A stretch of DNA of 64,000 nt, taken from Bugula neritina (lineage: Eukaryota; Animalia; Bryozoa). Position numbers and translations under genes: made by a program. A model generated the notes under the pieces. That model ran no database searches. It had not been told where the DNA came from and worked only from the letters and a program-made list of their open reading frames with translations. The stretch spans positions 24,172,126-24,236,125 of the forward strand of contig OZ037766.1 in NCBI GenBank assembly GCA_964035545.1, written 5' to 3'. Of this stretch, positions 2,158 through 63,869 are shown piece after piece. Numbering within the stretch: position 1 is the first letter of the stretch; each line of letters opens with the position of its first letter.

Positions 2158-5100
2158 ATGAAAAGTTCTCTTGATGGAAGCGTTGCTAGTAGCTATGGTA
2201 AGTTTGATACTATCTGTTCCTTTTTTTCTAGAAACATAGTGTAGTAATCAAAAGCTATAACAATAATAAAATCAATTAAATGAAAAGAAAATTCATTTGT
2301 TTATATATTTAATGACAGCTGCCAATACTTGAATTAAAATTGTGATATGTATAGGGCATAAATGGCATCAAGTAGTACAAGCATCTCTGTGATTTTACTA
2401 GTAACGGATGATAACACGTGTCTTTTTCATATGAACTACTTGTATCAGCACTTAATTTTCTTGAATCTAGATTTCAAAAATGTTTAGCTAAGTTAGTTGT
2501 ACTAAAGTAAACACAGCTTTTTTCAAAAGTTAAAGTAATAAAAGTAAATGTAAATTATTCTGTGTATTAATAATCAACTATAGCAAAACACATCTGAAGT
2601 CTATCTTGATATGCTTTAAATATGTTGACCTTTTGACTTGATGTAATAGAATATTATAGTTAATACATCTTAGTGCTATTGAAGATCATCCATGAAACAA
2701 AAGTTTCTGAATAAGAAATTACTAATTTTTATACAAACTTTAAAAATTTCATAATGACCAATTATTAGTAAAGCTTATGATTTTCTACTTTACAAATAGT
2801 TTTGTACATATTTAGTTTGCAAATCACATTACCATTCTCATTAAAAGGCTTTAAAAGTTAAAAGTATTGAAAATGTGCTAATTTGCTTATGCTAGTCTTA
2901 ATAACATCAGCAATGCATTTATTTCCAGATGTTGAGAATGAGAAGTTAAATGAAGCTCACCTTAATACACCTGGTCACTCTGTGGATGAAGGATATGCCT
3001 GGGTTATTCTTGCTATTAGTTTCTTTGTTAATGTATGGTTCTTATAATATATTATAATTATATCATATTATAATATTATATTTATTTGGACTGTTTGTCA
3101 TGTGTTGAAATATCGATACAGTTAACAATATAAATATAGCATAGGACTCTAGTTTAGGTCTTGGAAAGTCAAAAATTAGAATATGTGTATATTAGAATTA
3201 CATTAAAGCTAGTTTTCAACTATTTCATGCCCATGTACTTTTGCATTCTGTATCCTTAAATTTCTTCAATATTACCTTTACATTTTTCAGTGGCATGATA
3301 AATAGTTTTACACAAGAACTGAATATCAATTAAAAGTTTGTACCTAGAAATTGCTACAGCAGAGCTGGGTATATCATAAATCTGATGTTAGTTTCAAGTA
3401 CCGTGTTTATATGAGGTATTTTGACCTTCAGCTTATTTAGTTTGCAGGACTTGGGATAGCTTTTTCAGCTGGAGTATACACACCGGTGCTTCTTGAAGAA
3501 TTCAATGGTGAAAAGGAAGCTGTTGGTCTAATAGGAGCTCTTTATATCGGGTTTATATTCTTTGCAGGCAAATACTTATCCTTTATAATATGACCTTTAT
3601 AGCTGGCAAACATGCCACACTGGATGTATTATAAACTTCTAAAAAAATATATGTTCATTGTTACTTTAAAGGTTAATTAATTACCATATACATTATCTAC
3701 AAGTTGTTGTCAAAATAAAAACATATTATAGAAATAAATTAAGTAAAGCAGTATCTAAATAAGCTTAGCAGCCTCATTCATAGCTAAACATAGCTAATAC
3801 AACTTTTGAAGTTTATTTAGATTTCCCCTTATTTTTTTATACAAAGTAATGTCACTGTTGAGGATCTGTAATTACTTTTTCTCATATAATAGTTGCGGGG
3901 TAAGTTTTTAATAATTTTTACTCCTACTAAAATTACAAATGTACACGTTCACGTTGCCACCACTCTAACGGTTAGGTATGTTGACTCTTTCTATATAGGT
4001 CCTGTATCCGGGTACTTCACTAACCAGTTTGGTCACAGAGCTACAATAATAGGCGGAGCTTTGCTTGCAACAGTGGGCGTGGCTTTGGGAGCTGTAGTCT
4101 CTAATGTCTGGTTACTCTGTGTTACTGTTGGTGTAGTTGGAGGTATGGTTTAATAAATATTTGAGGAATAGAAGATATATATACAAAGATGCAAATACAT
4201 AAAAACAACAAAATATCAAAAATATTAAAGAAAATAATTAATTTATTTGTTTAAAATCAGGTAACTTTATTTCTAGAATACTAAAAGAAATAAAGTTTTC
4301 GCTATGTAGCTCATAAGCTTTTCTTGCTTGTATTTTAGTATCAAATTTATGTCATTCTCTTTAAAGAATACTTAAGTTCATTCTTAGAATGAAATATTAC
4401 AGGAATCTAAAACTACATTGTATACGCGGTGTTATTTTTTAGTCATGCAGACTGATTATATACGTTATTATAATACACCAGGTATATATTTCAATAATCC
4501 CACAATATTAAAAGTAAATTTGGCATTTCAGACTATCATCTAATGACATACAGGATGTATTACATACTGTGGTAAATTTATGTTGTGTGTGTGTGTCCTT
4601 TGTTGCCGAGATCGGTACTTCGGTCCTCCGAAACACCGATATGCCGATTCTCGGCATATCGGAATACCGAAGTACCGAAATGCCGGATTCGGCATTTCGG
4701 ATTCCCGAAGTACCGATATTCGGTATTTCGGGCCTCCGATCTCGGCAAACAAAGGAATGCCTTTGTCCTGCATGTATATAAAAGCCAGCGAGTTCCAGTA
4801 TAGTTCAGTCTACTACTGGAGCTCGCTGGATAAAGACCCTTGATTCACTCGGACTATACTACAATAAAGATTATCTACATTCTACCTTATTTCTCGCCTT
4901 GTTTCTTATACAAGCATGTAACAGCACTAGTTTCATTCACAATCCACAAAACTATCACATTGGTGGCAGCAGTGGGATTCTACGAATAGCTAGTTGCTAA
5001 GAGAAATAGGATGGCCCCAGGGGACCCAGCCCCTGAGGCAGCAGCACCACCAGCCCTCACTATTGAGGCGCTGGTCACAGCCCTCCAGGGATTGCGGGGG

Positions 5101-8100
5101 CAAGGACAGGCAGCACCTGGTGACAGGTATCGCCTCCAGCCCCCGACTTTCGGAGGAGATGGAGACGTGGAACAGTTCATCAAGGAGTTCGAGGACGTGG
5201 CCGCCACCGCTGAATGGCCAGTACGGGTGCGCGTCCTCCAACTCCGGGCCTGTCTGACAGGCCGGGCCAGGAACTTCGCACTGGGACCCGACGAAGCCCA
5301 CATCCTCCGGGCTCTTAGGGCCCGGTTCGGGTTGACCACGGAAGAGGCGACAGACCAGCTACAAGTGATGAGGAGAGACCGAAGGACATCTCTGGAAGAT
5401 CACGCTAACGAGGTAGAGCGCCTGGCTCAGGCTGCTTTCGGTCACGCCACTGGCGACGATCGGAAGCGCCTCGTTTTTAACGCGTTCTTCCGGAGTGTGA
5501 ACCACCCGGACCTCCAGCGGTACTGGCTAGCCGCAAAAGTCAAGAGCCTGGACGAAGCACTAGAGATGGGGAAGGCCTACTTCCAGGTGGAAGAGCCACG
5601 GAGGACGAACTACGCAGCTCGCCAGGTGGCCGGAGATGCAGAAGAGGTACCCCCAACCCCACAAGTGGCAGCAGCAGCTACCCCGTCACCTGAGCAGACG
5701 CAGCTCAACATGCTGATGAGCATGATGAAAGGCCTGCAGGCTACAGTGACGGAGTTGCAGCGCAACCAGACGGACAGGCGGGCTCCCCGCTCGCGGGACG
5801 ACCCTGTCCGCCCCCCTATGCCCACTTGCTGGGAGTGCGGGATGCCAGGACATGTGAGAAGGCACTGCCCTAAGGGACAGAAGCCTTTAAACACCCGAGG
5901 CTCACGGTGAATTCCGCCACCCGTGGGCCCCATGCCAATCCGGTCCGGGATAGGACTCGGAAGACAGTAGAAGAGACCTCTCCAGAGTCGACCTATATCG
6001 AGTGGCACGCAAACCGGAGATCTCGGAGACCGAAAGGCCTACCCGATCCTCCTGCCCTGCCACTCGATACCCGGATGGAACTAGAAGAAACCGGATGGCA
6101 GGCACCTCGGAGATCTCGGAGGCCGCAAGGTCTACCCGATCCTCCAGCCTGGCCACTCCGTAACCGGTTCGCGGGGTTGCCCGAGGAGGTTGTGGAGGAA
6201 GATTCAGCTTACTCGCAAGAGTATCCCAAGCTACCCTCCCGACCTCAGAAAACCCCCGTTGTCTCTAAGACGAAGAGGAGGCCCGCTGTGCGGACCCAAG
6301 TCGTGTCTCCCCCAGAGACTGACCGCTCCAGGAGCACCCAGCCGTATGGAAGCAGCTACTTCCTGCCCGGAAAGATTTTGGGTAAAGCTGCCACATTCCT
6401 ACTGGATACTGGGTGCACTACCAACCTGCTGAGTAGGCGTCTCTTTGACACCCTTGGTGCACGAGAGCGGGCGAGCCTCGAGCCGTATGAAGGTGCGCAT
6501 GGTACGTTGGCGGACGGATCATGCATTCCTTTCTACGGCGTCATTTCACTACCTGGACGCGTCCGTGATCAAGCAGTTCACGAGACGTTTATCGTCAGCC
6601 AGCTGAAGGAGGACGCCATCTTGGGAATGCCCTTCCTGGAGAAACACCAGTGCCACATGGATTTCCAGAAGTCAGTGGTGGTGATGGCTGGGAAGGAACT
6701 TGTCTGTGTTGACAAGTTTGGCAGGCCCTTGGTGGGCGGAGTCCAGGTAGTACGGGACTGCACAGTTCCGGGGAGGTCCCAGGCGACTCTCCGATGTAGA
6801 GTCAACTGCAAGGGGATCGCCGGCCTGGGGATGGTTGAAGGAACGCACGGAGCCATCCGACTAGCAAACAGCCTGAATCGGCTAGATTGTCGGCAAGAGC
6901 TCCTCGTGCAGTGCATCAACCCCTTCACGGAACCTGTCCAACTATCGGCTGGAGCGCTGGTGGGGAAGTACCACTCCATCCAGGAAGCGGATGTGGGTCC
7001 GGCACTGGAGACAGTGGCCGACAACCAGGGAAACCCCCTCACACCAGACGAGAAGCAGTCCCGGAGCATCTGGCTGACCTGTATGGCGGAGCATGCGGAA
7101 ACTGTACGAGTAGTACTGAACGCCAAGTACTGGCTCAACTACTCGCGGAGTACAGTGATGTCTTTAGTCGTGGCGATAGAGACATGGGGCTGACTAAGGT
7201 TATCTCTCACGAGATACCCCTGGCAGCCGACACCACTCCCATCAGACAGCCTACCCGACGTCTGGGCCCGGAGAAGGAGAAGGAGGTGAGCCGACAGGTA
7301 CAGGATCTTCTGGACCGGGATCTGATTGAGCCTGCCCACGGTGCGTGGAGCTCCCCAGTGGTCCTGGTCAAGAAGAAGGATGGTAGCTGGAGATTCTGCG
7401 TAGACTACCGCAGACTCAACAACGCCACCATCCAGGACGCCTACCCTCTCCCACGGATAGATGAGTCTCTAGATGCCCTCGCGGGTAGCAAGTACTTCAG
7501 TACTTTGGATCTGCTTAGCGGGTACTGGCAAGTGCCCCTCAGTCCTGATGCCCAGGACAAAGCAGCATTCATTACTCGCGACGGGCTCTGGAAGTGGAAA
7601 GTACTGCCATTCGGACTAACGTCCGCTCCGGCAACATTCCAACGGCTCATGGAGCAAGTCCGCAGTGGGTTACACTGGAAGACCCTCCTCATCTATCTGG
7701 ACGATGTCATTGTCATCTCCCCAGACTTTGCGACTCATGTCAGTCGTCTGCGGGAGGTCTTTGACCGTCTCCGGGCAGCCGGACTGAAGCTGAAGCCCTC
7801 CAAGTGCGCACTCCTGCAGCCGGAAGTCACATACCTGGGCCATGTGGTTGGCCGTGATGGGGTCGCTACCGATCCAGAGAAGGTACAAGCTGTGAAGGAG
7901 TGGACTGTTCCCCGCGACCTCCCTGAGTTGCGTGCATTCCTGGGCCTCGTAGGGTACTACCGGCAGTACATACCTGGTTTCGCAGGAGTGGCTCAGCCGT
8001 TAAATCGGCTGACCGCCAAGGGAGTCCGGTGGCAGTGGACACAGGAGGAGCAGCAGGCATTCGACCACCTCAAGCAACGGCTAATGGAAGCGCCAATCCT

Positions 8101-11100
8101 GGCGTATCCTGATCCAGCCAAGGAGTACATCCTGGACACCGACGCCAGCGACCACAGCGTGGGAGCCGTCCTGTCTCAAGTCCAGGGTGGAAGTGAGGTG
8201 GTCATGGCTTACTATAGCAAGACTCTCGCGGCCGCCGAGAAGAACTACTGCACCACTAGGAAGGAACTCCTAGCAGTAGTCAAGGCGGTCAAGCACTTTC
8301 GGCCATATCTGTATGGGAAATCGTTCCTTTTGCGAACAGACCATGCATCACTGATATGGCTGTGTAAACGTGCAGAGCCCTCGAGCCAGGTGGCTCGTTG
8401 GCTAGAGATTCTTGCCGAGTTCTCTTACCGTATAGAGCACCGTGCAGGCCGGAAGCATGGGAACGCCGACGGCATGAGCCGCCGGCCGGTAGAGAACTGT
8501 AAGCAATGCCTGCACATTGAACAGCGGGACGGGGGACCCGCTCGCCTTGACGTGGAAACAGAGCTAGTGGAGGGCACCGCCTACCGGTGGGAGCACGGCC
8601 ATCTTCGGACCGAAACCCACCAGGACGGTGTCCAGGCGCTCCACGCCAACCCTACTCTGCACCAGAACGTCAAGGAGCTGTGCCGACTCCAGGAGACGCT
8701 ACCCGGCGCGGTAGCGGACATCTTCCGGGCCAAGAAGGAGGGCCGACGACCTAGCGAGGAACAGCAGCGGCAGGGAGACGTTGAGTTCCAACTCCTCTGT
8801 CGTCGCTGGGATGCCCTCAAAGTCAGTCCTGATGGCCTCCTGATGATAACGTTAGCAGCAGACAACCGCCAGCAGAAGAGGGACCGCGTCGTCTGTCCAC
8901 GCGCCCTCCGGCGGGAACTGATCTGGGACACCCATAAGCAGGCTCATGCTGGAGTCAGTCGGGTCATCAGGTGTCTGCGGCTGCGTTGGTATTGGCCCGG
9001 AATGACTCGGGACGTACGACTGCGGGTACGGCAATGCGAGGTCTGCCAAGCTAGCAAGCATGGCCGCCCCACGGAAACCACTGGTCGACGCCGGCTGTAC
9101 GCTGGTCGACCGTGGCAAGTAGTGGCGGTAGACCTCGTCGGGCCTATGCCGTTATCCGCCAGAGGAAACAACTGGATACTGGTGCTCACGGACCACTTTA
9201 CCCGGTGGGCAGATGCTCTGGCCATTCCAGACGCCACCGCCCCCACGGTGGCCCGGACCCTGGACCAACATGTATTCTGTTACCTCGGTTTGCCCGAGCA
9301 GATACATACAGACCAGGGTGCCCAGTTCCAGTCCCAGCTCATGGGAGACCTCTGCCGGATATGGGGGGTGAACCAGAGTCGGACCACCCCATATCACCCG
9401 CAAGGGAACGGAGTCGTCGAGCGGAACAACAGGATGTTGGGTGACGCGCTCCGGAGCCTGCTGCTTGGTCGAGGTCAGGAAGAATGGGACGTGGTGCTGC
9501 CGCAGATCATGCGGGCTTACCGCAGCACACCACACTCCGCCACGCAGGAGACCCCAAACTTCCTGATGTTAGGCCGGGAGACGCGGGTCCCGGAACACCT
9601 GACGTACCATGTTCCTGCCCCCGAGTCACCGGTACACGAATATGTGGAGGGTCTGATGGACATCATGGGCAAAGCTCATGATGCGCTGCGCACCCAGCAG
9701 TGGCAGACCCGCACCGAGGACTCAGAGGAGCCCCCGTTGTACCAAGTGGGAGACTGGGTCTGGATGGTGAGTTACCGTAGGCGGCGTGGACAGTCGGCTA
9801 AGCTTCAGCCCAAGTTCGTCGGCCCCTACTGCGTAGTAGAGGTGCTGCCCAACCACACATACCGTGTGGAGCGCTCTGGGCAGGTCTCTGTCCAGAGCGA
9901 GCAGCGCCTCAAACCTTACCATGCCAGCCCAGACGCGGTGGGTCAGGCTCCACCCCTCTTGGAGCCTCACCGTCAGCCCAACCGACGTGGACGGGCCACC
10001 CGGCCCCGTGAGGTGGAGATTATGGTCCCCAGGGAGGCAGACCAGGAGCAAGCCGCCCTGATAGAGCAGCTGGAGCGACAGCAGAGAGCGGAGCGGGAGC
10101 AGGAACAGCAGCAAGCCCTTGGCTCACAACCCTTTCCGGGGGAGGACACTCCCACCCCCGTACGGGGTGAAGACGGGGACCCCCCTACCAGGGTAGCCCA
10201 GGAGCCACCAACACCACCAGAGTCTGTTCCACTTGAGAGGAGCCAGCGGCCAAGAAGACCTCCCAGGTACCTGGCAGACTATGCTGTAGGACACCTGGAG
10301 GGGCCCCCTCCTGAGGAAGACCCCCCCCACACTGACTGCCACCCCATCTTGGTTGGAAATTCCCTCCATCACCCCGGAGAATTCCACCAAGAAGAAGAAA
10401 TGGCCGACCGAATTTCGGAAGACACTCGATCACGCGAGTTTTCTTCTCGAAATCCGGGGGAAATTTCCACGGGCCACGCGACTCGGGCTTCAGCAGGTAA
10501 AACTTCTGAAGCACGAGGTTCGGCCATTTCTCATTCTGACTTCACACAGCTCGCACGGCAGTTGCAACTCAAACTAAATTCTGATTCTAATACTCATTTT
10601 GATTTTACCACTATTCTCCGTACGCTATCAGCGGCTATGGGGATCACTCTACCAGATACACAATCAGGTATTTCTTCTAGATTAGATCCTCCAGTTACGG
10701 AGTCTAATCAAACTACAGTAGACTGGTCTTTACTAGATTTACTTGGTTCTGATATCTTAGGACCGGAGGCCGAGATGGATCTCGGAGATGACTCTGCCAT
10801 TGATACATTGTTGAATCACGATGTAGGCTCAGTCAATTTCTGCGATACACCTCGGCCCTCGGTTTTTAACTTATCTCCATTCACACCTGTGCCGAATTTC
10901 GGCGATAGTGAGACCGGCTTCTCACAGCCTCTACTATCTATTCTAGAGGAGCGAATGGACGTTGAGGAGGCCAGTCGGTCCGACTCCCCTCCCCCACCGG
11001 GCCTTGCTTCGGCTTCTACCAGCCAGCAGGCCGCCACCTCCTCCACAGAGGTGTGTTCCGCCATGGTTGGCCCTGACCCCAAACCGGTCGAGCTTCAGCT

Positions 11101-14100
11101 CACGGCCGGGGAGGAGCAGGGCATCCTACACGGCGACCACCTGCCAGCAGAAGAAGATGCCTCCCCAATACTGGCCCTGCCTCGGGCCCTGGTCGCCCGC
11201 CAGTATTGGGTGACTGGACCCACCAACCTAAAAATTGGTGATGCTTGCAGTGAGCCGGGTAACCGCATCTGCCATGAGTGTAAGAGGAAATTCTCCTCTG
11301 CACGGCGGTTGCGCGTACACGCCCCTCAGCATTACATCAACGTGTTTTGCCCGTGTGGGGAGTTCTCCTACCAGAGAGACTATGTGTTGAGACATCAGCG
11401 CATAGCTCACTGCCACACGGGCTACACGTTTGCTGTAGACCAGGCCTCCTTTCCCGAATTTCGGGACCTGGTGCTGCCACACGTGGCGGATCCCCACAAA
11501 CGGGCTGCGCTCGCCCTGGGATTCCCCGCGTGTAGGCCTGTTCGGGAGGAAGAAGGGGAGCCCGCCGCGACACCCCAACCGGCAGCCACCCAGCCACTTC
11601 GGGTCATGCTGGCACGGGTCGGATCAGGTGCCAGGGCCGATTCATCGGACCTGGGCCCCCGACCCTCGGCGGCGGGCGAGAAGCAGACGCACCGCCAGCG
11701 ACGTCCTGCCCGTGGTACTACCGACCGCCCTAGGCACCAGACGTCAGCTCAGTTGGCAGAGGAGGTTCACCAGTTACGCCGGCAGCTCCGCAGATATGAA
11801 GAGGAGCTGGGGCAACTCCGGAGACGAGTTAGCCGCCTGGAGCGGGGTCGATCTGGCGACCGCCGCTGAGACTATTTGTATAGTTTTTGTTTTCTCTTTT
11901 CTTTTCTACTCTTATTCTTTGTGTGTTTATTATATGTGTGTAAGTTCTTCATGTGATGTATGTACCTATTCATGCTCTGTTTTTCTTGTGTGTGCACAAA
12001 TTTTCCCTGTTTTTTTGTTGTTATCATTGTATTATTACTATCACTGCATGTTTACCATATTTTTTCCGTGTGTTCTTTCAACTGTGCGTTTTATTGTCGT
12101 GTCATTCCCTGTTGTGTGTTTGTGTTGTGTACGCCTCTTTATCGGAAAGCATGCTTTCCGATGGGGGGTGTGTGTGGTAAATTTATGTTGTGTGTGTGTG
12201 TCCTTTGTTGCCGAGATCGGTACTTCGGTCCTCCGAAACACCGATATGCCGATTCTCGGCATATCGGAATACCGAAGTACCGAAATGCCGGATTCGGCAT
12301 TTCGGATTCCCGAAGTACCGATATTCGGTATTTCGGGCCTCCGATCTCGGCAAACAAAGGAATGTCTTTGTCCTGCATGTATATAAAAGCCAGCGAGTTC
12401 CAGTATAGTTCAGTCTACTACTGGAGCTCGCTGGATAAAGACCCTTGATTCACTCGGACTATACTACAATAAAGATTATCTACATTCTACCTTATTTCTC
12501 GCCTTGTTTCTTATACAAGCATGTAACAGCACTAGTTTCATTCACAATCCACAAAACTATCACAATACTGCTTTTACTCTAGGCAGTGGCACATCTATGA
12601 TATACATTCCATCAGTCACAATCTTAGCTGAATACTTTCGAAAGTGGAGGACAGTAGCTTTTACGATCAGCGCAGTGGGTATAGGAACTGGTACACTGGT
12701 CATGCCTTTCTATTTGAAATGGGCTATTGATCAGTATGGAAGGAGAGGAGCCTATTTGATGACTGCAGGCAAGAGGTGTTTGACTTTCGGTGGTTGTGCT
12801 AATGAAAACTTCAACTGATTATATTTTTGTGTTTTATTGTTTTGGAAATGACCAAGAACTATTTTGCTGCAGTAATTTGATAAACGAAAAACACTTTTTT
12901 TAGACACTTCAACTTTTTTACATCTAAAAATCGTAGGCTAGACGATTTATGTTTGTCAGCCAAATAATAATTTTGAAAATCCTATTACATCATTATAACA
13001 AAGGTGTTCAAAAAGCTATATAAAGAGTTTTAAGGAATTGTTTATAGACAGCTGAATATGAACTGAAACCTCATTTAGATGATATTTTGTTTGATTTTAG
13101 GGGTAATCCTTCAGGTGGTGGTTGCTGGATTTTTAATAGATAGAACTCAAACACCAATTCAAAATCGAAAATCAAATTTTACATTTAAAGAACAGTTTGC
13201 TTCCGTCTGCAACTGGAAATTTATTGGTTTTCTAGCAAACAATTTTCTGTTCGGACTTTCGACTACTGTTGTGTACGTATTTCTTCCCGACTACGCTGAA
13301 TTGAAAGGACTTACTAGAATCCAAGCAGTATACCTCGTGTCAATTATTGGTATCAGCAATGCTGTAGGCCGATTGCTAAACATTCCAATTAGTTTATGTC
13401 GCTGCAACCATGGCGTCGTTTATGGTATTACCTGTGCCCTCAGTGGTGTGGTCATCTGTGTAATAAACATTCACATATCTGAGAATGAGAAAACATTTAT
13501 CTTTCTTGCGTCTGCATGTTTGCTGTATGGGTTGATGTTTGGCATCCAACTGGCTAATCTCGTTGTAGTAACAAACTACTTGTGTGAAGACATATTTCTC
13601 AACTTTGCATTAGGAATAGCTATGATGTTCAACGGAATTGGTTCAATCTGTGGATCGCCAGTCGCAGGTTTGTTAAACATTATTACTAGTTTTGAATGCA
13701 AAGAAAATACTTTATCAAGTAACAGCTCAATGACATAAATTTTATTTCTTGTTTTAAAACGCAGTTAGTTTTAGTGCTAATAGAACATGTAACTAGTTTT
13801 AAATTTGTATTTAATTGTCTACCAAATATTACCTACAATAGATAATTATATTAAAAGTTATTTTAAAGTTTTACTAACAAAGTAATAGAAAAGCAAATGA
13901 AAACAAAAAAACAAATTTCAACTAATATAAAACAATGTTTTCTGATGTATTACAAAATTTTGATTATCTTAAAAGCTATAATATTTACCAGACCACTGTA
14001 CTAATATTTAAAAATGTTATAGTCAACGATAGAGTAAAACTGTGCATGGGGGGGGGGAGGTGGAGTAGTACTTATACTTAAAGCAGCTGACGGATGGTGT

Positions 14101-16116: not shown

Positions 16117-18391
16117 TCAGTCAGCTATTGGAATAGACTCTGTTGATTGTTTCATTTTATAGACCGCAGGTAAAAGAATCAATCCTGCTATGATGGTCAA
16201 TCCTCCAGCTATGTAGAAGGGCAGTTCAAAGCTGTCCCCACCAATAGTAAAGAAAAATGCTACAAATGTAATATAATAGAAAATATATTTCTCAGTTTAG
16301 GGTAGCATTAGTCCAAACATAAATGGAAAAGTTCAAATTTCAGCAAGACAAAAGCAGTAAAAAGCAGTAGAAAAAGTTTTTATTAAATTCTTATCAGCTT
16401 TTTATGTCACAAGAGGAATTGGCTAACAGGAGAAAATTTTTACATCCTTTAATTTTCTCTGGCTTTTTAGTATCAGGTTTATAAAATTTTACTATCACTT
16501 AATATGCATATTTATTATTAGCCAAGTAGTTTGAACAATTAGCTTATTTACAGACACAGTATGGCTCAAAATTTGCTAAAGAGCTTGGTTCAGTTTATAA
16601 AGCATACAAAATTATTAACTGAAAAAATTGTGACTAACCAACCTGCTACTGGTGAGCCAGTTATAACACCACCTCCAGAAAACAGCATAGCAAAGCCAAA
16701 CCCAGTATTGAGAAAAGCATCTGAAGTTAAACAGTTAGCAACTATGGTAAGATTAGCGTGTTGAACTCCATATCCTAAACCATAACATGCGCATGCTACA
16801 GCGAGTATAGAAAAACATCCCTCCATGCTGTCAGATCTAATGTTCATCAAGCAAACCGCTACTCCACTAAATGTACAGGAAATGACGCATATATAACCAG
16901 GGCTTGCACTACAGAGACTTATGGGAATGTTCAATAATCTACTCAAAGCATTGCTAATTCCGATGATCGACACGAGATAAACGGCTTTCATATCTGAGAT
17001 TCCTTTAAGTTCTGCATAGTCTGTTACAAAAACAAAGACAACAGTAAGAGCAATGCTATAGAGAAAAATGTTCAGCAGAAACAGGTTGTATCTCCAATTA
17101 CAGAGACTTAGAAACTGTTCCTTAATTGTAAATTTTGACCTCCGGTTTTGAGAAGAAGCTCTCTTGGTAGAAATAATTAGAAATCCAGCAACCACATTCT
17201 GCAAGCTAACCCCTAAAATGAGATTTTTAACAGTTTTAAACATGGGCGACATGTTTTTTACAATTGTTCTAAACTTAATTCCTAATTCTTGTCAAAGTAC
17301 TTTTACTGGAAAAGATCTACACTTAAAAATGTTGAGCATTGCTACTTTTTACTATAAGATATTTTTCAATCGTTGCGTAAGCTTTTCAAGTTAAACATCG
17401 TACAAACTTGCACACAACTTTGCAAAAGCCATTCTTTTAACTGACAAATTACAACATCTATAGGCTTAGGCTAACAATTCACATTTTTACTAAGATGAAG
17501 ATCTACTTTACCTGCAGAAAGTAAATATCCGCCTCTCCAACCGTAACTGTCAATTGCCCATTTTATATACAGGGGGAAGATCAGTGTACCAAATGCTAGT
17601 CCAGATGTCATGATTGTAAAAGCTATGGTCTTCCACTTAACAAAGTAACCAACAAGTAAGGTGTTTGCTGAAATGTATAAGCAGGACGTCCCTGTACCTG
17701 CAAAAGGGAGTTTAGAGAGGAGATAATAAATAATTTTGCAACTTTATATGATTTATTAAAAGATCATATCTTCTGTTAATTAGTATAATATATGTTAAGA
17801 CTTGTTGAAATTGCCTAAATAGTTTTTATTCTTCAAGATCAACTTGAGGAAATGACAACTTTGTTCAAGCCTATTGCTACATAATATACTATAGTAAAAT
17901 AGTGAGTGAATTTAAAGCAACGCTTTTGTTTAAAAACAGGGCGGTGGCAGAGATTTTTGAATGATGAGTGTGCATCACTGAAACTTATCTAATAAAGATT
18001 ACTGAAAGATAATCAAATTAATTACTATTTTCAATACACTTTTTGAGCTCAAAATAGGTATTTGTATATTTATATTAGGCAAAGTAATTATTTGGCATAC
18101 CTCCAACTACACCAACAGTAACACAGAGTAACCAGACATTAGACACTGCAGCTCCCAAGGCCACGCCCACTGTTGCTAGCAAAGCTCCACCTATTATTGT
18201 AGCTCTGTGGCCAAAATTGGTAATAAAAATCCCAACCAGAGGACCTAAAATTTATATCAACAAATCAACAGCATGACAATGAAAGCTGCTAATAATGAAT
18301 GAATATATTTGTTAAGATGTATGTGTGTGTGCGTGTGTGTGTGCGTGTGTGTGCGCGTGTGTGTGCGCGTGTGTGTGTGTGTGTGTGTGTT

Positions 18392-18422
<31 letters not shown>

Positions 18423-20303
18423 GTAAGTGTGTGCGTGCGTGCGTGTGTGACATTAAAACAAATGTAGGATCTAACATACAGTGAACATTGTTTTCTAAGT
18501 TTTTATATCTTGCCAGCAAAAAAAATGAATCCAATATGAAGAGCTCCAACCAAACCAACAAGTTCTCTTTTGTCATCAAACTCCGCCAGAAGAGCCGGGG
18601 AGAAAACTCCAAAAGACATTCCTAATCCAGCACCAGCAAACTGAGAGAACATAGAATGTGTTACTAGTAAGGAATCTTAAGTCACAGCCTGCTAGTCTTT
18701 TATAGAATTTTACAGGATCAATTCACACTAAATAATATTATAATGAATGATGGTTTTTGCAAACAAAGGCCAATTTATATGTAACTAGGAATTCAAATGT
18801 TAAGCAATATTACTGAAATATCAGTTGCCTTTAAATAATGCATTGAAAAGACAATCAAATTCTTTTGTACTCTAAAAATTATTTTGAGTACTTTAAATAA
18901 GTAAGGCTTATATGGCCATGAACTTGTGATTTATAAAGGTTAAGTTTATGATTATCAGAAATAATAACCAAGTTTATTTATTTAATATATTCTTGCAAAA
19001 ATGGTTATGATTTATCAATTTAAAAACATTTAAATATGCGTTCTCTTTTGCTGCTAAACGAATAACTGATCCACAGTTTAATTTGGCATTTTCAGTTCTC
19101 AGAGAAAATTTGACAAAAATAAGATGCTAAATGAATTCGCATTCTTTTCCCTCAAGTTTTTCAGATAGAGAGAGAGAGAGGGTGGGGGAGGGGAGAGAAA
19201 GTTGGCAAACTATGTTCATAAAGCATTTTAACCTATTCTAAAAAATATATTCAAGTGCTTTAGTTCATCTATCAACTTTTAGTAGATTTCATAGGAAGTG
19301 AAATGTTAAAAATATTTTACAAATACCAAGGTTATTTCATTTGCTGTTTGTGTAAACCTACATGTGGGGAAGCTTAAAGTAAAATACACTAATATTGTAA
19401 TAATAATACAATAATACATACATTAATAAAGAAACTAATAGCAAGAATAACCCAAGCATATCCTCCATCTACAGAGTGACCAGGTGCATTAAGGTGAGCT
19501 TCATTAAACTTCTCATTCTCAACATCTGGAAATATATTGAAAGTTTTGAAACTGGAAGGTAATAGTCGTACAGTATTATAACCAGCACATATGCATGTTC
19601 AAACATAAAGTAAAACCTACACTACTTGTGTTTGGTAAACAACTTGACTTATGGCATGACAATTGACAAAAGTTAAAGCATAATCTAAAATCTTACTACA
19701 TAATTTGTTGACAAACATTTTACCCTGTGATGTTATGCAAAGACTTAGCAGTGTAAAGAGACCTCTCACCTATTTAAATACTTGACCAGGCTCATGTGTT
19801 TAAAGGTACTTTGAGTAAAGCAGAATGAGCTGTTAATAATCTTACTTTATCTTCATCTGGTTTGTTTAATGGTGAAATGAACAATGCTAAACTGATTAAA
19901 CAGCAGATGGAGCAACATATATATGTTAGAGTTAGCTAAGCAAACTATTTTTTCACCAAAGCGGTGTTAGTTTTAGAAGCATCTACTTTCTTTTCAGCAT
20001 CTCACAAGCTATATGACTTGAATTTGATAGAATACCATACACATATTTTATATTCTGTATTTATGTATTATATACCAACTGTAATATTATACAAGTTCAT
20101 GCTAACATAGATAGGAAAATATATAATAACTATTAGAGAAAACAAGTTGCAACACTTTGAAAATTTAACATGCCATCTTAAACTACTTTATCAATAAAAC
20201 TGAATAATTTGTTTTATTAATTTAATTGCCTTTTCCTTTATAAAAGTGTTAGAAAGATCTTACCATACACATCTGAACTGTCAGCTTCAGCAAACTTTTC
20301 CAT
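16117..20303 (-). CDS. SLC16/MCT transporter gene B (inverted paralog of gene A); exons 20264-20303, 19422-19525, 18514-18640, 18101-18244, 17512-17697, 16643-17212, 16117-16259
   Basis: VDGGYAWVIL motif; exon sizes 40/104/127/144/186 identical to gene A; intact spliced ORF ending in TGA. Confidence 0.9.
18317..18449. repeat. Imperfect (TG)n microsatellite in intron 3 of MCT gene B
   Basis: Read directly. Confidence 0.95.
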
Positions 20304-25304: not shown

Positions 25305-27089
25305 CTAATAAAATATTGCAATAAGTTTTCCCACAAGGGAAGAGAAAAAAAGACAGTATCAAACAACTAGCAGTAATGCATTATAATAAAGCATAAATAC
25401 ACAAATCACATCTTTTAAATATAAGGATATTCATTATATCTCAGCTATGCCAAATTTAAATAAGTTAAGTTAAGCTTAAGTTTTTGGAGTAGACAATTGC
25501 TAGCTGCATTACTTTCTCTAAATGACCATTTAATATAATATAGAAAGTGTTGCATGAGCACATTATTGTTTTAGCGCGTTACATTAGAAAGTTATATAAA
25601 ATTTGCTAAGAAAAATATCGTCTAAATATTGTTCTATAGCGGAAGATTATATGTCTTTTTTAAAATATAAATATGTTTATACAGCTTTCATAGGTGTTTA
25701 GTAGGTTAAATAAAGCCTGGCTATATTTTCTTTTTGAATTAGAGAAGTTGTTGTGATAAGCTTTGAATCATTGTAAAAGAGGCATTTGGCAGCTGAAGAT
25801 TGAAAGAAGTGACTGTTAGTACTGAGGAAACTTCCAGAAAACATTGCAAGTAAGTATCTATATTCTAAAGAAGGAAACCACTGTATATCATGTGTCATTA
25901 AGTGGTACAAGGTGTTGTATGTGACATTACAAATGTAAATTGTGTTGATCAAATACCACCTTCTAAAACATTAATACTGTTCATTAATTTTATTAAATAT
26001 AATGCAGTTTAGACCATGTTTGGTGTTTTAAAGCCAATACTTTTTCTATATACTTATTCAGTGTCAAATATTAGAATGTTCTAGCTGTAACAATAAATCA
26101 TATAAGAAAGCATTCTGCTTGCAGTCTAGGAGTTGGAGGGTGTTTTTTTAGAAAACACGAAGTACTGAGCTTGATCTCTCTAAGTAAAAACTATTAGTGA
26201 AGATTCAGTTGAGATAGCCGACCATCAATATATTATTTTACTGGTTTCATCCCAGATAGACGCTATTTTTTATTTTGGTACCACTACATATAGTAATATA
26301 ATTATAATGTATACCCACATAAATGTTGCATTGATCGCTAAATAGCTATAGCTAATAAGCTATAATAGCTAATAGCTATAATAGCTAGTAGAAATTATCT
26401 GGGATAATATTCCAGTTTTTACAGATATGTGTATGGGACAAAAAGCACTAATACATTAATAATAGATATTGTCATATTATTGAATATTTATTAGCGAAAT
26501 ATCTTTTCAAACAATAAGAACTATAGAAAATGTAAAATTAATCGGTTAATGCAGATCGAAGGATTTTATTTATGTGCTAAATAACAAGCGGTTGATTCAA
26601 GTTTATTTAAATATACATATATTTCAATATTCAAATAAATTGCCCATATAATATATATTGTACCTAAATAAACAAATAGCATCTAACTGGGATAACACCA
26701 TTTTACTTAGACTACTCCAACACCCCTCCCTCCTTCTGTCACGTTCATTTAGATGAATTTATTTAAAAGTCTTAAAACATAGTGGTATTTGATACTAATA
26801 AGCTGCATTCATTTTGATTTCAAGTAGTAGTCAAGCTACCATTGATTGTCTCCATGCAACACCTCCGAATATAGCTTTTAAGTATATTTGCTGCAGCTAA
26901 AGTTATCTTCTCCTCTAATTTTCATATCAACTGAAAACTGGCAATTAAAGTTGCTAATATATGCAAAAGAGTCAGTAGTTAATAATGAGACTTGTTATAC
27001 AAGTGCAGCTCTATTTTTCGCTATTCAGGTGAGAGACACAGAAGGCCATATCTCAGTTGTGAAAGAAGCATTCAGGTTGTGACGTTACC

Positions 27090-28484: not shown

Positions 28485-28897
28485 TATAGCCAAAAATTCC
28501 TTTTATCAAAATAATATTAAAGATGATTTTTTTTATTCATAAGCTAATTTTTTTATCATGCCTGTAGCTTTTTAGTCTTACTAATAATTTTTTTGTGATC
28601 CATAGTATCTAATAGAGCAACTTAATGTTTTATCTATTATTTTATTATTTAGCAATAAAAATTATGAGTATTCTAAACCAAAAGACCATAATGCATTCAA
28701 CTTTTGTAAATTGATTGCTATACTTTTGACTTAGAAGCTAATATTTGGTTTCATTATTTACTAATCAGGAATTAATTTAGCAACTTCAAGTACTGGAGGC
28801 CTCCTGCAAGTTTGTAGAACTTATTATAGGACAACAAATTACATCATTTAATGATTTAAATTTTTGCATGTTAAACTATGCTATATTTGTCTGCGTA

Positions 28898-56580: not shown

Positions 56581-57101
56581 TGTAATGGATTCTCATCCTC
56601 TATTGTTCTGAAATAACTGCGTGCATCAGTATACTATAAATACTGTTGCGTATCATTCTTAATGCTGTAATTATAGTTAAGTAAGCTAGCTTGCTAATGC
56701 CTAAGTATGGTGATTACTGTTAAGCTTGCAGCATAATGTGATTTTACTGAAATACGCATTCTGAAGTTATGTAATATTTCTTTTACTAATGTTGCTTTCT
56801 TTTGTGTGTGTCCTTGGTGGCTGAGATCGGCATTTCGGAGTCCCGAAATGCCGATATTCGGCATTTCGGAACCCCGATCTCGGCAACAAAGGAATGTCTT
56901 TGTCTCGCTTGTATATAAAAGCCAGCGAGTTCCAGTGTAGTTCAGACTACTACTGGAGCTCGCTGGTAGTAGGACCACATAAGCTGTATCTGATACAAAT
57001 AAAGTTTATCTTTCATTCGTATTCAAATACTTGGCTTATTCTCTCTAACGCAAAGAGTATGTTCAAGCACTAGTTGCATTCATAACCCACAGTTTACTAC
57101 A
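56581..57101 (+). repeat. 5' LTR of element 2 (521 bp)
   Basis: Direct repeat of 63329-63869 with ~10 substitutions and a 20-bp indel. Confidence 0.96.
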
Positions 57102-57102
57102 T

Positions 57103-57120
57103 TGGTGGCAGCGGTGGGAT
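57103..57120 (+). other. PBS, tRNA-Leu
   Basis: TGGTGGCAGCGGTGGGAT, complementary to the tRNA-Leu(AAG/TAG) 3' end. Confidence 0.88.
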
Positions 57121-57152
57121 TATACGAATAGCTAGTTGCTGGAAGAAAAAAG

Positions 57153-58071
57153 ATGGCCCCAGGGGACCCAGCCCCCGAGGTAGCGGAGACACCAACCCTC
57201 ACTGTTGAGGCGTTGGTCACAGCCCTCCAAGAATTGCGGGGGGGGGGGGGGGGGGCAAGGACAGGCATCACCTGGTGACAGGTATCGCCTCCAGCCCCCA
57301 AATTTCGGAGGAGAAGGAGACGTAGAGCAATTCATCAGGGAGTTCCAGGATGTGGCCACCATCGCTGAATGGCCAGTACGGGTGCGCATCCTCCAACTTC
57401 GGGCCTGTCTGACAGGCCGGGCCAAGAGCTTCGCTCTTGGGCCTGATGAAGAGCACATCATGCGGGCTCTCAGGGCCCGGTTCGGTCTGACGACTGAAGA
57501 GGCGGCAGACCAACTACAAGTGATGAGGAGAAACCAAAGAACACATCTGGAAGATCACGCTAACGAGGTAGAGCGCCTGGCTCAGGCTGCTTTCGGCCAC
57601 GCCACTGGCGACGACCGGAAGCGCCTCGTTTATAATGCGTTCTTCCGGAGCGTGAACCACCCGGACCTGCAGCGATACTGGCTGGCCACCAAGGTCAGCA
57701 GTATAGAAGAAGCGCTGAAGATGGGGAAGGCTTACTTCCAAGTGGAAGAGCCTCAGAGGGCAAGCTACACAGCTCGCCAGGTGGCCAAAGACGAAGAAGA
57801 GGCACCCCTATCTTCAACCCCACAGGTGGCGGCAGCAGTAACTCCATCACCTGAGCAGACGCAGCTCACCATGTTGATGAACATGATGAAAAGCCTGCAG
57901 GCTACGGTGTCGGAGTTGCAGCGCAACCAGACGGACAGGCGGGCTCCCCGATTGCGGGACGACCCTGTCCGCCCCTCTCTGCCCACCTGTTGGGAGTGCA
58001 GGATGCAAGGTCATGTGAGAAGGCACTGCCCTAAAGGACAGAGGCCTTTAAACACCCAAGGCCCACGGTAA
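57153..58071 (+). CDS. gag: Gag of element 2, frameshifted by a G18 run at 57238-57255
   Basis: ATGGCCCCAGGGGAC start as in element 1; G5 expanded to G18 (+13); CCHC knuckle CWECRMQGHVRRHC. Confidence 0.88.
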
Positions 58072-61000
58072 CTTCCGCCACCCGTGGGCCTCACGCTAAT
58101 CCGGTCCAGGATAGGACTCGGAAGACAACAGAAGAGACCTCTCCAGAGTCGACCTACATCGAGTGGCAAGCAAACCGGAGATCTCGGAGACCGAAAGGCC
58201 TACCCGATCCTCCTGCCATGCCACTCGAAACCCGGATGGAACTAGAAGAAACCGGATGGCAGGCACCTCGGAGATCTCGGAGACCGCAAGGTCTACCCGA
58301 TCCTCCAGCCTGGCCACTCCGTAACCGGTTCGCGGGGTTGCCCGAGGAGGTTGTGGAGGAAGATTCAGCTTACTCGCAAGAGTACCCCAAGCTACCCTCC
58401 CGACCTCAGAAAACCCCCGTTGTCTCTAAGACGAAGAGGAGGCTCGCTGTGCGGACCCAAGTTGTGTCTCCCCCAGAGACTGACCGCTCCAGGAGCACCC
58501 AGCCGTATGGAAGCAGCTACTTCCTGCCCGGGAAGATTTCGGGTAAAGCTGCCACATTCCTGCTGGATACTGGGTGCACTACCAACCTGCTGAGTCGGCG
58601 TCTCTTTGACACTCTTGGGGCTCGAGAGCGGGCGAGCCTCGAGCCGTATGAAGGTGCGCATGGTACGTTGGCGGACGGATCATGCATTCCTTTCTACGGC
58701 GTCATCTCACTGCCTGGACGCGTCCGTGATCAAGCAATTCACGAGACGTTCATAGTCAGCCAGCTGAAGGAGGACGCCATCTTGGGAATGCCCTTCCTGG
58801 AGAAACACCAGTGTCACATGGATTTCCAGAAGTCAGTGGTGGTGATGGCTGGGAAGGAACTTGTCTGTGTTGACAAGTTTGGCAGGCCCTTGGTGGGCGG
58901 AGTCCAGGTAGTGCGGGACTGCACAGTTTTGGGGAGGTCCCAGGCGACTCTCCGATGCAGAGTCAACTGCAAGGGGATCGCCGGCCTGGGGATGGTTGAA
59001 GGAACGCACGGAGCCATCCGACTAGCAAACAGCCTGAATCGGCTAGATTGTCGGCAAGAGCTCCTCGTGCAGTGCATCAACCCCTTCACGGAACCTGTCC
59101 GAATATCGGTCGGAGCGCTGGTGGGGAAGTACCACTCCATCCAGGAAGCGGATGTGGGTCCGGCACTGGAGACAGTGGCCGACACCCAGGGGAACCCCCC
59201 TCACACCAGACGAGGAGCAGTCCCGGAGCACCTGGCTGACCTGTATGGCGGAGCATGCGGAAACTGTACGAGTAGTACTGAACGCCAAGTACTGGCTCAA
59301 CTACTCGCGGAGTACAGTGATGTCTTCAGTCGTGGCGATGGAGACATGGGGCTGACTAAGGTTATCTCCCACGAGATACCCCTGGCAGCCGGCACTACTC
59401 CCATCAGGCAGCCTACCCGACGTCTAGGCCCGAAGAAGGAGAAGGAGGTGAGCCGACAGGTACAGGATCTTCTGGACCGGGATCTGATTGAGCCTGCCCA
59501 CAGTGCGTGGAGCTCCCCAGTGGTCCTGGTCAAAAAGAAGGATGGTAGCTGGAGATTCTGCGTGGACTACCGCAGACTCAACAACGTTACCATCCAGGAC
59601 GCCTACCCTCTCCCACGGATAGATGAGTCTCTAGATGCCCTCGCGGGTAGCAAGTACTTCAGTACTTTGGATCTGCTTAGCGGGTACTGGCAAGTGCCCC
59701 TCAGTCCTGATGCCCAGGACAAAGCAGCATTCATTACTCGCGACGGGCTCTGGAAATGGAAAGTACTGCCATTCGGACTGACGTCCGCTCCGGCAACATT
59801 CCAACGACTCATGGAGCAAGTCCTCAGTGGGTTACACTGGAAGACTCTCCTCATCTATCTGGACGATGTCATTGTCATCTCCCCAGACTTCTCGACTCAT
59901 GTCAGTCGGCTGCGGGAGGTCTTTGACCGTCTCCGGGCAGCTGGACTGAAGCTGAAGCCCTCCAAGTGCGCACTCCTGCAGCCGGAAGTCACGTACCTGG
60001 GCCATGTGGTTGGCCGTGATGGGGTCGCTACCGATCCAGACAAGGTACAAGCTGTGAAGGAGTGGACTGTCCCCCGTGACCTCCCTGAGTTGCGTGCCTT
60101 CCTGGGCCTAGTAGGGTACTACCGGCAGTACATACCTGGTTTCGCAGGAGTGGCTCAGCCGTTAAATCGGCTGACCGCAAAGGGAGTCCGGTGGCAGTGG
60201 ACACAAGAGGAGCAGCAGGCATTCGACCACCTCAAGCAACGGCTAATGGAAACGCCAATCCTGGCGTATCCTGATCCAGCCAAGGAGTACATCCTGGACA
60301 CCGACGCCAGCGACCACAGCGTGGGAGCCGTCCTGTCTCAAGTCCAGGGTGGAAGTGAGGTGGTCGTAGCTTACTACAGCAAGACTCTCGCGGCCGCCGA
60401 GAAGAACTACTGCACCACTAGGAAGGAACTCCTAGCAGTAGTCAAGGCGGTCAAGCACTTTCGGGCATATCTGTATGGGAAATCGTTCCGTCTGCGAACA
60501 GACCATGCATCACTGATATGGCTGTGTAAACGTGCAGAGCCCTCAAGCCAGGTGGCTCGTTGGCTAGAGATTCTTGCCGAGTTCTCTTACCGAATAGAGC
60601 ACCGTGCAGGCCGGAAGCATGGGAACGCCGACGGCATGAGCCGCCGGCCGGTAGAGGACTGTAAGCAATGCCTGCACATTGAACAGCGGGACGGGGGACC
60701 CGCTCGCCTTGACGTGGAAGCAGAGCTAGTGGCAGGCACCGCCTACCAGTGGGAGCACGGCCATCTTCGAACCGAAACCCACCAGGACGGTGTCCAGGCG
60801 CTCCACGCCAACCCTACTCTGCACCAGAACGTCAAGGAGCTGTGCCGACTCCAGGAGACGCTACCCGGCGCGGTAGCAGACATCTTCCGGGCCAAGAAGG
60901 AGGGCCGACGACCTAGCGAGGAACAGCAGCGGCAGGGAGACGTTGAGTTCCAACTCTTCTGTCGTCGCTGGGATGCCCTCAAGGTCAGTCCTGATGGCCT

Positions 61001-63148
61001 CCTGATGATAACGTTAGCAGCAGACAACCGCCAGCAGAAGAGGGACCGCGTCGTCTGTCCACGCGCCCTCCGGCGGGAACTGATCTGGGACACCCATAAG
61101 CAGGCTCATGCTGGAGTCAGTCGGGTCATCAGGTGTCTGCGGCTGCGTTGGTATTGGCCCGGAATGACTCGGGACGTACGACTGCGGGTACGGCAATGCG
61201 AGGTCTGCCAAGCTAGCAAGCATGGCCGCCCTACGGAAACCACTGGTCGACGCCGGCTGTACGCTGGTCGACCGTGGCAAGTAGTGGCGGTAGACCTCGT
61301 CGGGCCTATGCCGTTATCCGCCAGAGGGAACACCTGGATACTGGTGCTCACGGACCACTTTACCCGGTGGGCGGATGCTCTGGCTATTCCAGACGCAACC
61401 GCCCCCACGGTGGCCCGGACCCTGGACCAACATGTGTTCTGTTACCTCGGTTTACCCGAGCAGATACATACGGACCAGGGCGCCCAGTTCCAGTCCCAGC
61501 TCATGGGAGACCTCTGCCGGATATGGGGGGTGAACCAGAGTCGGACCACCCCATATCACCCGCAAGGGAACGGAGTCGTCGAGCGGAACAACAGGATGTT
61601 GGGTGACGCGCTCCGGAGCCTGCTCCTTGGTCGAGGTCAGGAAGAATGGGACGTGGTGCTGCCGCAGATTATGCGGGCTTACCGCAGCACACCACACTCT
61701 GCCACGCAGGAGGCCCCAAACTTCCTAATGCTAGGCCGAGAGACGCGGGTCCCGGAACACCTGACGTACCATGTTCCTGCCCCCGAGTCACCGGTACACG
61801 AATATGTGGAGGGTCTGATGGACATCATGGGCAAAGCTCATGATGCGCTGCGCACCCAGCAGTGGCAGACCCGCACAGAGGACTCGGAGGAGCCCCGTTG
61901 TACCAGGTGGGAGACTGGGTCTGGATGGTGAGCTACCGTAGGCGACGCGGACAGTCGACTAAGCTTCAGCCCAAGTTCGTCGGTCCCTACTGCGTAGTGG
62001 AGGTGCTGCCCAACCACACGTACCGTGTGGAGCGCTCTGGACAGATCTCCGTCCAGAGCGAGCAGCGCCTCAAACCTTACCATGCCAGCCCAGACGCGGT
62101 GGGTCAGGCTCCACCCCTCCTGGAGCCCCACCGTCAGCCCAACCGTCGAGGACGGGCTACCCAGCCCCGAGAGGTGGAAATCGTGGTTCCCAGAGAGTCG
62201 GACCAGGAGCAGGCCGCCTTGATAGAGCAGCTGGAGCGACAGCAGAGAGAGGAGCGGGAACAGGAACAGCGGCAAGCCCTAGGACCACCACCCTCCCTGG
62301 GGGAGGACACCCCCACCCCCGTGTTGGGTGAAGGCGGGGACCCCCCTACTAGGGTAGCCGAGAAGCCACCAACACCACCGGTGCCTGTTCCAATTGAGAG
62401 GAGCCAGCGGTCAAGAAAACCCCCCAGGTATCTGGCAGACTATGCTGTAGGGCACCTGGAGTGGCCCCCTCATGAGGACAACCCACCCAGTACAGACGAC
62501 CACCCCATCTTGGCTGGAAATTCCCTCCATCACCCCGGAGAATTCCACCAAGAAGAAGATTTCACACAGCTAGCACGTGAGTTACAGCTTAAGTTGAATT
62601 CTAATCCTGATACCCCTGAGTATAATTTAGACACTGTTATTCAGACACTAGCATCAGCTATGGGAATTACCTCGCCAGATACCCAAACAGAGGAGCGTAA
62701 GGATACCGAGGAGGCCAGTCGATCCGACTCCCCTCTTCCACCAGCTCCTGTTTCGGCTCCCCGCAGCCAGCAGGACGACACCCCCTCTTCCGAGGTGTGT
62801 TCCGCCAGCGTTAGTGGCCCTGACCCCAAACCGGTTGAGCTCCAGCTCACAGCTGGGGAGGAGCAGGGCACTCTATACGGCGACCACCTCGCAGGCAGAG
62901 ACGAAGAAGACTCTCCAATACTGGCAATGCCTCGGGCCCTGGTCGCCCGCCAGTATTGGATATCTAGAGCACCAGGCAGCCAGATAGAAGAACAGACTCA
63001 GCCAACCCACCCACAATTGCCCCGTCACGGGCAGAGTATGGCACTTCCTTACCGAGAGTGCGTTCTGGATAGCGCAATCGAGGCCTGGTCCCGTATCCTC
63101 GATCCAAGTACAGAAGAGATAAAAAGCCTGGTGCACCACCTCCAATGA
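58047..63148 (+). CDS. pol: Pol of element 2 (via -1 frameshift at TTTAAAC 58047-58053); 1-nt deletion in a C run near 61893-61896; shorter tail lacking zinc fingers and zipper
   Basis: ORFs 58218-61931 and 61862-63148; PR/RT/RH/IN nearly identical to element 1. Confidence 0.93.
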
Positions 63149-63328
63149 TAAAACCGGACAATTAGGGGCTGCTGTCAATAGCCACCCGAACTGTATATAT
63201 TATCGTGTTACGTGTGATTAATCATAATACTTTTCTGTTAACCGCATATTTTTCTACGTTGTGTTTCATTTTTGTGTGGAATCATTGTTCTGTTATCGAA
63301 AAGGGGATGCTTTTCGATGGGGGGAGAA

Positions 63329-63869
63329 TGTAATGGATTCTCATCCTCTATTGTTCTGAAATAACTGCGTGCATCAGTATACTATAAATACTGTTGCGTA
63401 TCATTCTTAATGCTGTAATTATAGTTAAGTAAGCTAGCTTGCTAATGCCTAAGTGTGGTGATTACTGTTAAGCTTTCAGCATAATGTAATTTTACTGAAA
63501 TACGCATTCTGAAGTTATGTAATATCTCTTTTACTAATAGTGCTTTTCTTTTGCTAATGTTGCTTTCTTTTGTGTGTGTCCTTTGTTGCTGAGATCGGCA
63601 TTTCGGTCTTCCGAAATGCCGATATTCGGCATTTCGGAACCCCGATCTCGGCAACAAAGGAATGTCTTTGTCTCGCTTGTATATAAAAGCCAGCGAGTTC
63701 CAGTGTAGTTCAGACTACTACTGGAACTCGCTGGTAGTAGGACCACATAAGCTGTATCTGATACAAATAAAGTTTATCTTTCATTCGTATTCAAATACTT
63801 GGCTTATTCTCTCTAACGCAAAGAGTATGTTCAAGCACTAGTTGCATTCATAACCCACAGTTTACTACA
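63329..63869 (+). repeat. 3' LTR of element 2 (541 bp)
   Basis: Follows the PPT; ends TTTACTACA, then TSD CTAT. Confidence 0.96.

Follow-up and report, generated by a model that had tools for sequence, protein, structure and literature searches.

A conserved two-zinc module at the end of pol in a Bugula neritina Ty3/Gypsy retrotransposon, a candidate element-encoded regulator

We analysed a 64,000-nt stretch of Bugula neritina DNA (the window; coordinates are positions in the whole window) that holds element 1, a complete Ty3/Gypsy (Metaviridae) long terminal repeat (LTR) retrotransposon at 4568-12564 with LTRs, primer-binding site, polypurine tract and target-site duplication. A domain scan gives the coding order gag, then pol with protease, reverse transcriptase (RT), RNase H and integrase. 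As an original prediction made on this DNA had claimed, the frame continues past the integrase SH3/GPY-F domain. The extension is about 660 residues long and carries a module composed of an acidic-hydrophobic patch, a predicted two-zinc domain and a predicted C-terminal coiled coil. We find that the module is conserved and under purifying selection, and that in three other families it is a separate third open reading frame (ORF3). We propose, at a confidence a little short of probable, that the module may work in trans for the element, binding DNA or chromatin and either activating expression or countering silencing.

Element 1 and the extension of its pol frame

The features of element 1 are collected in Table 1. 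The peptides quoted in the original prediction all lie where it had placed them, among them the acidic patch, a first finger (C291/C294/H307/H311, 11270-11332; residues counted from the ATG at 10400, over a stretch of 489) and a heptad repeat (L452-L480). Its exclusion of an env product also stands, as the extension has no transmembrane segment (highest 19-residue hydropathy 0.94) and domain scans of it returned no fusion-protein homology. The integrase end motif is RPRRPPRYLADY, and Pol relatives without the extension often terminate directly past it (34/87).

An acidic-hydrophobic window is a heuristic sign of an activation domain. Such a window occurs in 21/34 of the linkers between integrase and a fused zinc-binding domain, against 7.6 in shuffles and 5/34 in RT-integrase sequence; it lies downstream of the integrase end motif in 11/11 scorable cases and at the start of the separate ORF3s of two families (L004 and L006). 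A coiled-coil score in the last 70 residues passes in 26/34 fused proteins, against 1.5-5.8 in shuffles and 7/87 other Pols, at a looser cut-off that was chosen afterwards with shuffle controls, the strict one passing 5/34. We predict that the C-terminal helix is a coiled coil. The basic leucine zipper (bZIP) originally read here survives as this heptad coiled coil and fails as a bZIP, a class defined by a helical basic region with an N-x7-R/K-x9-L motif joined to the zipper: the motif is absent, Pfam returned no bZIP match, the basic stretch contains prolines, and the predicted helix begins only at about residue 447. The ATG at 10400, proposed as a start, is missing both from element 2, a sister copy in the window, and from the homolog P0095. 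Met80 (10637) and Met186 (10955) are better conserved in relatives, and the region of Met80 and its candidate splice acceptor may be the start of a separately made protein.

Table 1. Features of elements 1 and 2 in the window
Feature	Position	Strand	Details
Element 1, 5' LTR	4568..4959	+	392 bp; TATA 4775, AATAAA 4863; 1 mismatch against 3' LTR
Element 1, target-site duplication	4564-4567 and 12565-12568		ATAC, 4 bp
Element 1, U3 array	4606..4745	.	18 TCGG/CCGA half-sites; ~8-bp pitch, direct and inverted pairs, immediately upstream of TATA
Element 1, primer-binding site	4961..4978	+	presumably tRNA-Leu type
gag	5011..5910	+	CCHC knuckle; overlaps pol
pol, protease part	5874..7193	+	frame broken before RT in the element 1 copy
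Open frame of pol	6839..11869	+	RT, RNase H, integrase (H2C2, core, SH3/GPY-F), C-terminal extension
RPRRPPRYLADY motif	10247..10282	+	integrase end motif
Candidate splice acceptor and conserved Met80	10605..10639	+	AG ends 10631; Met80 at 10637; AT-rich stretch
Acidic-hydrophobic patch	10721..10813	+	residues 108-138
Two-zinc domain	11171..11539	+	conserved; residues 258-380
C-terminal coiled coil	11753..11839	+	predicted
Element 1, 3' LTR	12173..12564	+	polypurine tract ahead at 12163-12168
Element 2	56581..63869	+	sister of element 1; 93% DNA identity over 5.7 kb; target-site duplication CTAT; two LTRs
Element 2, LTR array	56827..56883	.	8 half-sites; repeated at 63595-63651
Element 2, substitute C-terminal piece	62965..63148	+	~55-60 residues, in place of the domain

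A slippery-like TTTAAAC near 5885 suggests a -1 frameshift between gag and pol, and Rfam gave no match within 4400-12700. Element 1 is inserted in an intron of a major facilitator superfamily (MFS, monocarboxylate-transporter-like) gene, some 18 bases ahead of the likely splice acceptor (3985-4145, 12583-12768, 13100-13690), and a minus-strand paralog lies near 16590-17291. Elsewhere in the window, two long intronless ORFs (27063-28484 and 30723-32084) look paralogous by eye and match no Pfam family at cut-off, and a 637-residue minus-strand ORF (33027-34940) is receptor-like, with a weak immunoglobulin-like match and a hydrophobic stretch. Long GT/AT microsatellite tracts (28839-29600, 44266-45500, 18265-18480) give rise to spurious ORFs.

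A predicted two-zinc domain, fused to integrase or encoded separately

The domain runs from a helix with W270 and T275 through CxxC-x12-H-x3-H and CxC-x12-H-x5-C sites to a V346-D347 strand and closing helices. Seven Cys/His residues are 94-100% conserved across 78 copies that share less than 60% identity. Of the two fingers originally claimed, the Cys/His residues are present, but the last His of the second (H337) is kept in only 16% of these non-redundant copies; the second-site ligands are C317, C319 and H332 plus a variably placed Cys/His after them (C338 in element 1), the latter present in 63/64 pattern-matching copies, with 14/78 copies outside the pattern. Loss of the Cys/His pattern had been named beforehand as a possible refuter of the regulator idea, and the pattern is kept across copies. 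Arg or Lys occupies positions 302, 303, 305, 326, 331 and 334 in 51-73% of the 78 copies, which places basic residues on both finger helices.

Structure prediction revises the picture of two loose fingers. A first model from 10 sequences resolved the C-terminal helix alone (predicted local distance difference test score, pLDDT, 44), and an AlphaFold2 model from 74 sequences (pLDDT 94, predicted TM-score 0.86) shows the fingers flanked on either side by helices and strands, within one compact domain of about 120 residues. The predicted fold is thus a single unit that is built on two zinc sites and has a basic finger helix; a homodimer prediction without alignment scored 0.18 against a mark of 0.32. 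Finger 1 has the canonical C-x2-C-x12-H-x3-H form of tandem C2H2 factors (Kaiso, ZNF524, SALL4, HIC2) in 41/78 copies, Pfam zf-C2H2 scores 21.2 bits on the element 1 domain (below the 25.2 cut-off), and about 50-57 residues superpose on finger pairs of DNA-binding C2H2 proteins at Z 3.0-3.6 at best. The domain departs from these factors in several ways: a five-residue link stands where they have a TGEKP linker, the second site is CxC with a fourth ligand that varies, and additional helices and strands join the fingers into one unit. Its overall fold matches solved C2H2 arrays only in part (Z at most 3.6; TM-score to query at most 0.35). No whole-domain match was found in Pfam, PDB or BFVD (with Foldseek, none at E 0.001 in PDB or BFVD), which does not prove a new fold; similar Atlas clusters, at 0.90 or below, are unnamed or C2H2 and serve as leads only.

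These features bear on whether the module acts on promoter DNA at all. As a counter-defence factor or adaptor it would bind RNA or host proteins (small-RNA pathway, silencing complexes, ubiquitin ligases), and an atypical second site and fingers packed in a larger domain unlike tandem DNA readers suit that role. So do the fast evolution of the domain relative to integrase (median identity 0.24 against 0.57) and the non-env ORF3s with RNA-related functions described for bdelloid elements in the available text of PMC5408684. We nonetheless consider the role distinctly unlikely, as domain and fold searches found no catalytic motif or known interaction fold, and an acidic patch with an oligomer-forming helix suits a transcription factor.

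The domain is widespread among relatives of element 1. Nine proteins match residues 250-489 at 55-76% identity, and a profile search returned 251 clusters (50% identity) at E of at most 0.001 and 121 at E of at most 1e-10, counts that take in linker-only matches. It follows integrase in frame in 33 of the 120 best-scoring Pol relatives (E <1e-5), separated from it by a linker of 200-730 residues. In Pol trees built from unnamed relatives only, all 33 belong to a single clade of 96 rows (support 99), and the remaining 25 rows contain no fused copy. Within that clade the fused domain is unclustered (52/500 shuffles as low), in part because protein records do not show broken copies or separate ORF3s; such records undercount the domain, since P0210, scored as lacking it, is the Pol of a locus that encodes it separately (L002).

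Six of the 19 metagenome loci retrieved via integrase carry the domain. In one family (L003, L004, L005, L010) and in L006 the pol stop is followed by a separate ORF with the domain; in L002 such an ORF lies before an LTR, beside a variant with that ORF deleted. The L002 contig (1-1356, 7336-7435, 1842-1930) holds ORF3-bearing and ORF3-deleted 3' ends with a short shared sequence at the junction, and may reflect two variants joined in an assembly loop. Three public DNA runs, from one organism and one study, contain many related pieces. A word-based search with the tail among proteins of 921-2933 residues gave no match for lack of sensitivity: the profile went on to detect the tail in 33 Pols. 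Locus scans with the tail alignment gave no match in metagenome or viral contigs; the integrase alignment gave none in viral contigs and, in genome contigs, 11 loci without a domain match.

Annotated proteins with the domain and without RT or integrase occur in Watersipora subatra and B. neritina, one of the former having two domain copies and a coiled coil. The named carriers are all bryozoan among the clusters looked up (3/20 from the representative search). P0154 (Watersipora XP_067944745) and P0163 (Bugula KAF6040922) share, besides the domain, an N-terminal segment of about 60 residues (27% identity, E 7e-20), suggesting an orthologous host gene. These annotated proteins may also represent retroelement transcripts, or domestications that came later; the tree of the domain is poorly resolved and cannot root them.

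Selection, loss of the module and the LTR arrays

Neutral evolution of the tail, a second refuter named in advance, gave way to purifying selection. Among listed domain variants, 20/31 are synonymous against an expected fraction of 0.24-0.30, in a test that drew on 40 of 147 sites, those with the best support, and these sites are non-independent; the only altered Cys/His among the listed variants is the non-conserved H337. The ratio of nonsynonymous to synonymous rates (dN/dS) is 0.09 and 0.22 for ORF3 pairs of the L004 family and 0.04-0.55, on few changes, for domain pairs. It is 0.30 and 0.43 for the linker common to elements 1 and 2, 0.23 for gag and 0.08 for protease, and the L003 and L004 integrases differ by 4 nonsynonymous and 0 synonymous changes. 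Protein variation within families (domain 1.09%, linker 1.30%, integrase 0.33%, coiled coil 3.69%) is outlier-driven and not informative. A neutral read-through or dead captured host fragment could explain a disordered, variable linker and frequent loss; set against invariant ligands, the synonymous excess, dN/dS well below 1 and 251 clusters, it is very improbable, and the selection signal largely refutes it.

Element 2 retains the linker and, as the original prediction noted, lacks the fingers and coiled coil. Its frame is broken in gag and at the integrase end, and reads through the protease-RT junction where that of element 1 breaks. The substitute C-terminal piece of element 2 recurs in P0095, an unnamed protein, with a different junction, which indicates that tail-less variants are a recurring subfamily; element 2, P0095 and the L002 deletion variant are all sister copies without the module. 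The LTRs of elements 1 and 2 (4568-4600 against 56581-56800) share the array, TATA and R region and have unrelated 5' parts of U3, which, together with synonymous divergence (dS) of 0.04-0.35 along the elements, suggests recombination.

Because fusion to integrase is common and has precedents, the main rival to a regulatory role is an integration tether, in which the domain, on or bound to integrase, would guide the pre-integration complex towards selected DNA or chromatin in the manner of a chromodomain. Besides the 33 fused relatives confined to one clade, this idea draws on divergence of the domain in step with integrase (rho of pairwise identities 0.68; 0/2000 permutations as high) and on the precedents of chromodomain, PHD and MBD (PMC6673714, available text). 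Linkage alone, however, predicts such co-divergence; a separate ORF3, found in three families, is by default not packaged with Pol; the acidic patch and coiled coil accompany the domain in both forms; the linker is long; and element 2, which lacks the domain, has a pair of LTRs and a target-site duplication. On this evidence we regard a tether as rather unlikely.

The original prediction coupled the tail to the array of TCGG/CCGA half-sites in the LTRs. TCGG-N4-CCGA occurs 12 times in the window, always inside the four LTRs, with 0.06 expected by chance, and element 2 has about half the array, as had been stated (8 against 18 half-sites). For the coupling itself the case is weak: the motif persists in element 2, which has no fingers; the array is like a host DEAF1-type site; and a TCGG array is absent from two other families with the domain. 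Those families show a GCACTTC array in the L002 LTR and five AGCCA motifs in a partial L006 LTR, in a comparison limited to the three domain-bearing families with much LTR sequence. The L002 array has a 15-bp unit in 4.7 copies, with a palindrome that we take to be ETS-like. The differing arrays would fit either family-specific targets, as for VANC, or the sites of different host factors.

The DEAF1 site is described as repeated TTCGGG with CpGs 6-11 nt apart, the 6-nt spacing being selected in 23/58 sequences (PMC4274154, available text). Like such SAND-domain sites, the element 1 array has repeated TTCGG-type half-sites with CpGs 6 nt apart, in 13/18 intervals; unlike them, it has only 9/19 CpGs in TTCG, and many half-sites are inverted. 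That the TCGG array is a DNA target of the module is possible but doubtful, and a host DEAF1-type factor fits at least as well. The likeness would also suit a module that binds host promoters and shifts the cell state in the element's favour, leaving the LTR array to host factors alone. This role in host-gene regulation could further explain annotated host proteins that carry the domain, two of them with a common N-terminal segment in Watersipora and Bugula; given that these could be retroelement transcripts or later domestications on a poorly resolved tree, we hold it to be improbable. The CpG ratio is depleted in the host flanks (0.33-0.35) and less so in the elements (0.70-0.74), which makes methylation plausible.

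A putative regulator and its relation to known systems

We favour a trans-acting activator or anti-silencing factor because the unit of acidic patch, zinc domain and coiled coil is kept whether fused or free, occurs stand-alone and has been lost by sister copies. Such loss, together with both arrangements, is as expected of a shared diffusible product. The module may be made mostly as its own protein, from its own ORF or from an internal or spliced start; the coiled coil would oligomerise it, the acidic patch could recruit host co-activators, and copies without the module would use protein supplied by intact copies. Of the self-encoded regulator originally proposed, a conserved, selected and transcription-factor-like product with acidic patch, zinc-finger domain and coiled coil is supported; it is not a bZIP, and the coupling of protein and array is doubtful.

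Several observations weigh against this explanation. C2H2-like domains bind RNA or protein too. The fused form is common and stable, with several families having many full-length fused copies, a pattern that suits a tether. No acidic patch is present in 13/34 fused linkers, XP_067940964, P0056 or the L002 ORF, and element 2 and 11/65 short tails also satisfy the heuristic. Finger-helix residues are fairly conserved across families with differing LTR motifs, contrary to strict co-evolution of protein and site. The non-independent sites of the variant test count on the same side.

Extra ORFs after pol (PMC5408684) and reader domains on integrase (PMC6673714) are, in the available text of these papers, already known kinds. 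Bdelloid Vesta and Juno, Ty3/Gypsy elements with non-env ORF3s, likewise have an extra ORF after pol with family-specific gain and loss; their ORF3s usually come from a separate spliced message and some have coiled coils (PMC5408684). Theirs are GDSL esterases, DEDDy exonucleases or membrane proteins, and the word "zinc" is absent from the text of that paper, whereas the module described here is often fused in frame to integrase. Chromoviruses, PHD-bearing retrotransposons and CopiaMBD similarly encode a chromatin- or DNA-reading domain with Pol (PMC6673714); chromodomain, PHD and MBD profiles had no match in the element 1 tail or domain, and the present module also occurs as its own ORF, with acidic patch and coiled coil. 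The available text on Troyka elements mentions no such module (PMC12440569), and the literature searched, with Repbase, Dfam and most subscription journals outside its coverage, contained no description of the domain.

Complex retroviruses and plant DNA transposons are known to encode DNA-binding regulators of their own; for animal Gypsy elements we found none described in that literature. The module offers a compact, well-predicted domain, hundreds of natural variants, loss mutants in the same genome and a 392-bp LTR reporter, so that it becomes possible to test by what means LTR elements promote or shield their expression when the animal genome around them is methylated. As a tether it would be a new class of integration-targeting domain; regulator or tether alike, it belongs to an unnamed zinc-binding family with apparent host-gene versions.

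Foamy-virus Tas (PMC7828637) is the product of a 3' accessory ORF and acts on the element's own transcription, the mode proposed here; it differs in belonging to Retroviridae with env and an internal promoter and in not being fused to integrase, and the domain model had no match in BFVD. VANC of Arabidopsis VANDAL transposons is also an element-encoded accessory protein, associated with short motif arrays that vary in unit number and sequence between related elements (PMC5735166, available text). VANC comes from a plant DNA transposon, has DUF1985/DUF287 domains and has shown binding and demethylation, whereas DNA binding by the present module is a proposal, and we found no homology between the two. 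In its boldest form, which we consider speculative and on balance unlikely, our proposal is that a clade of animal LTR retrotransposons supplies itself with a sequence-specific transcription factor built on a previously unnamed two-zinc fold. Each family's protein would read its own LTR array (TCGG here, GCACTTC in L002), keep it active and unmethylated, and travel with integrase when fused; parasitised by tail-less sisters and domesticated as host genes in bryozoans, it would be an animal counterpart of VANC and Tas.

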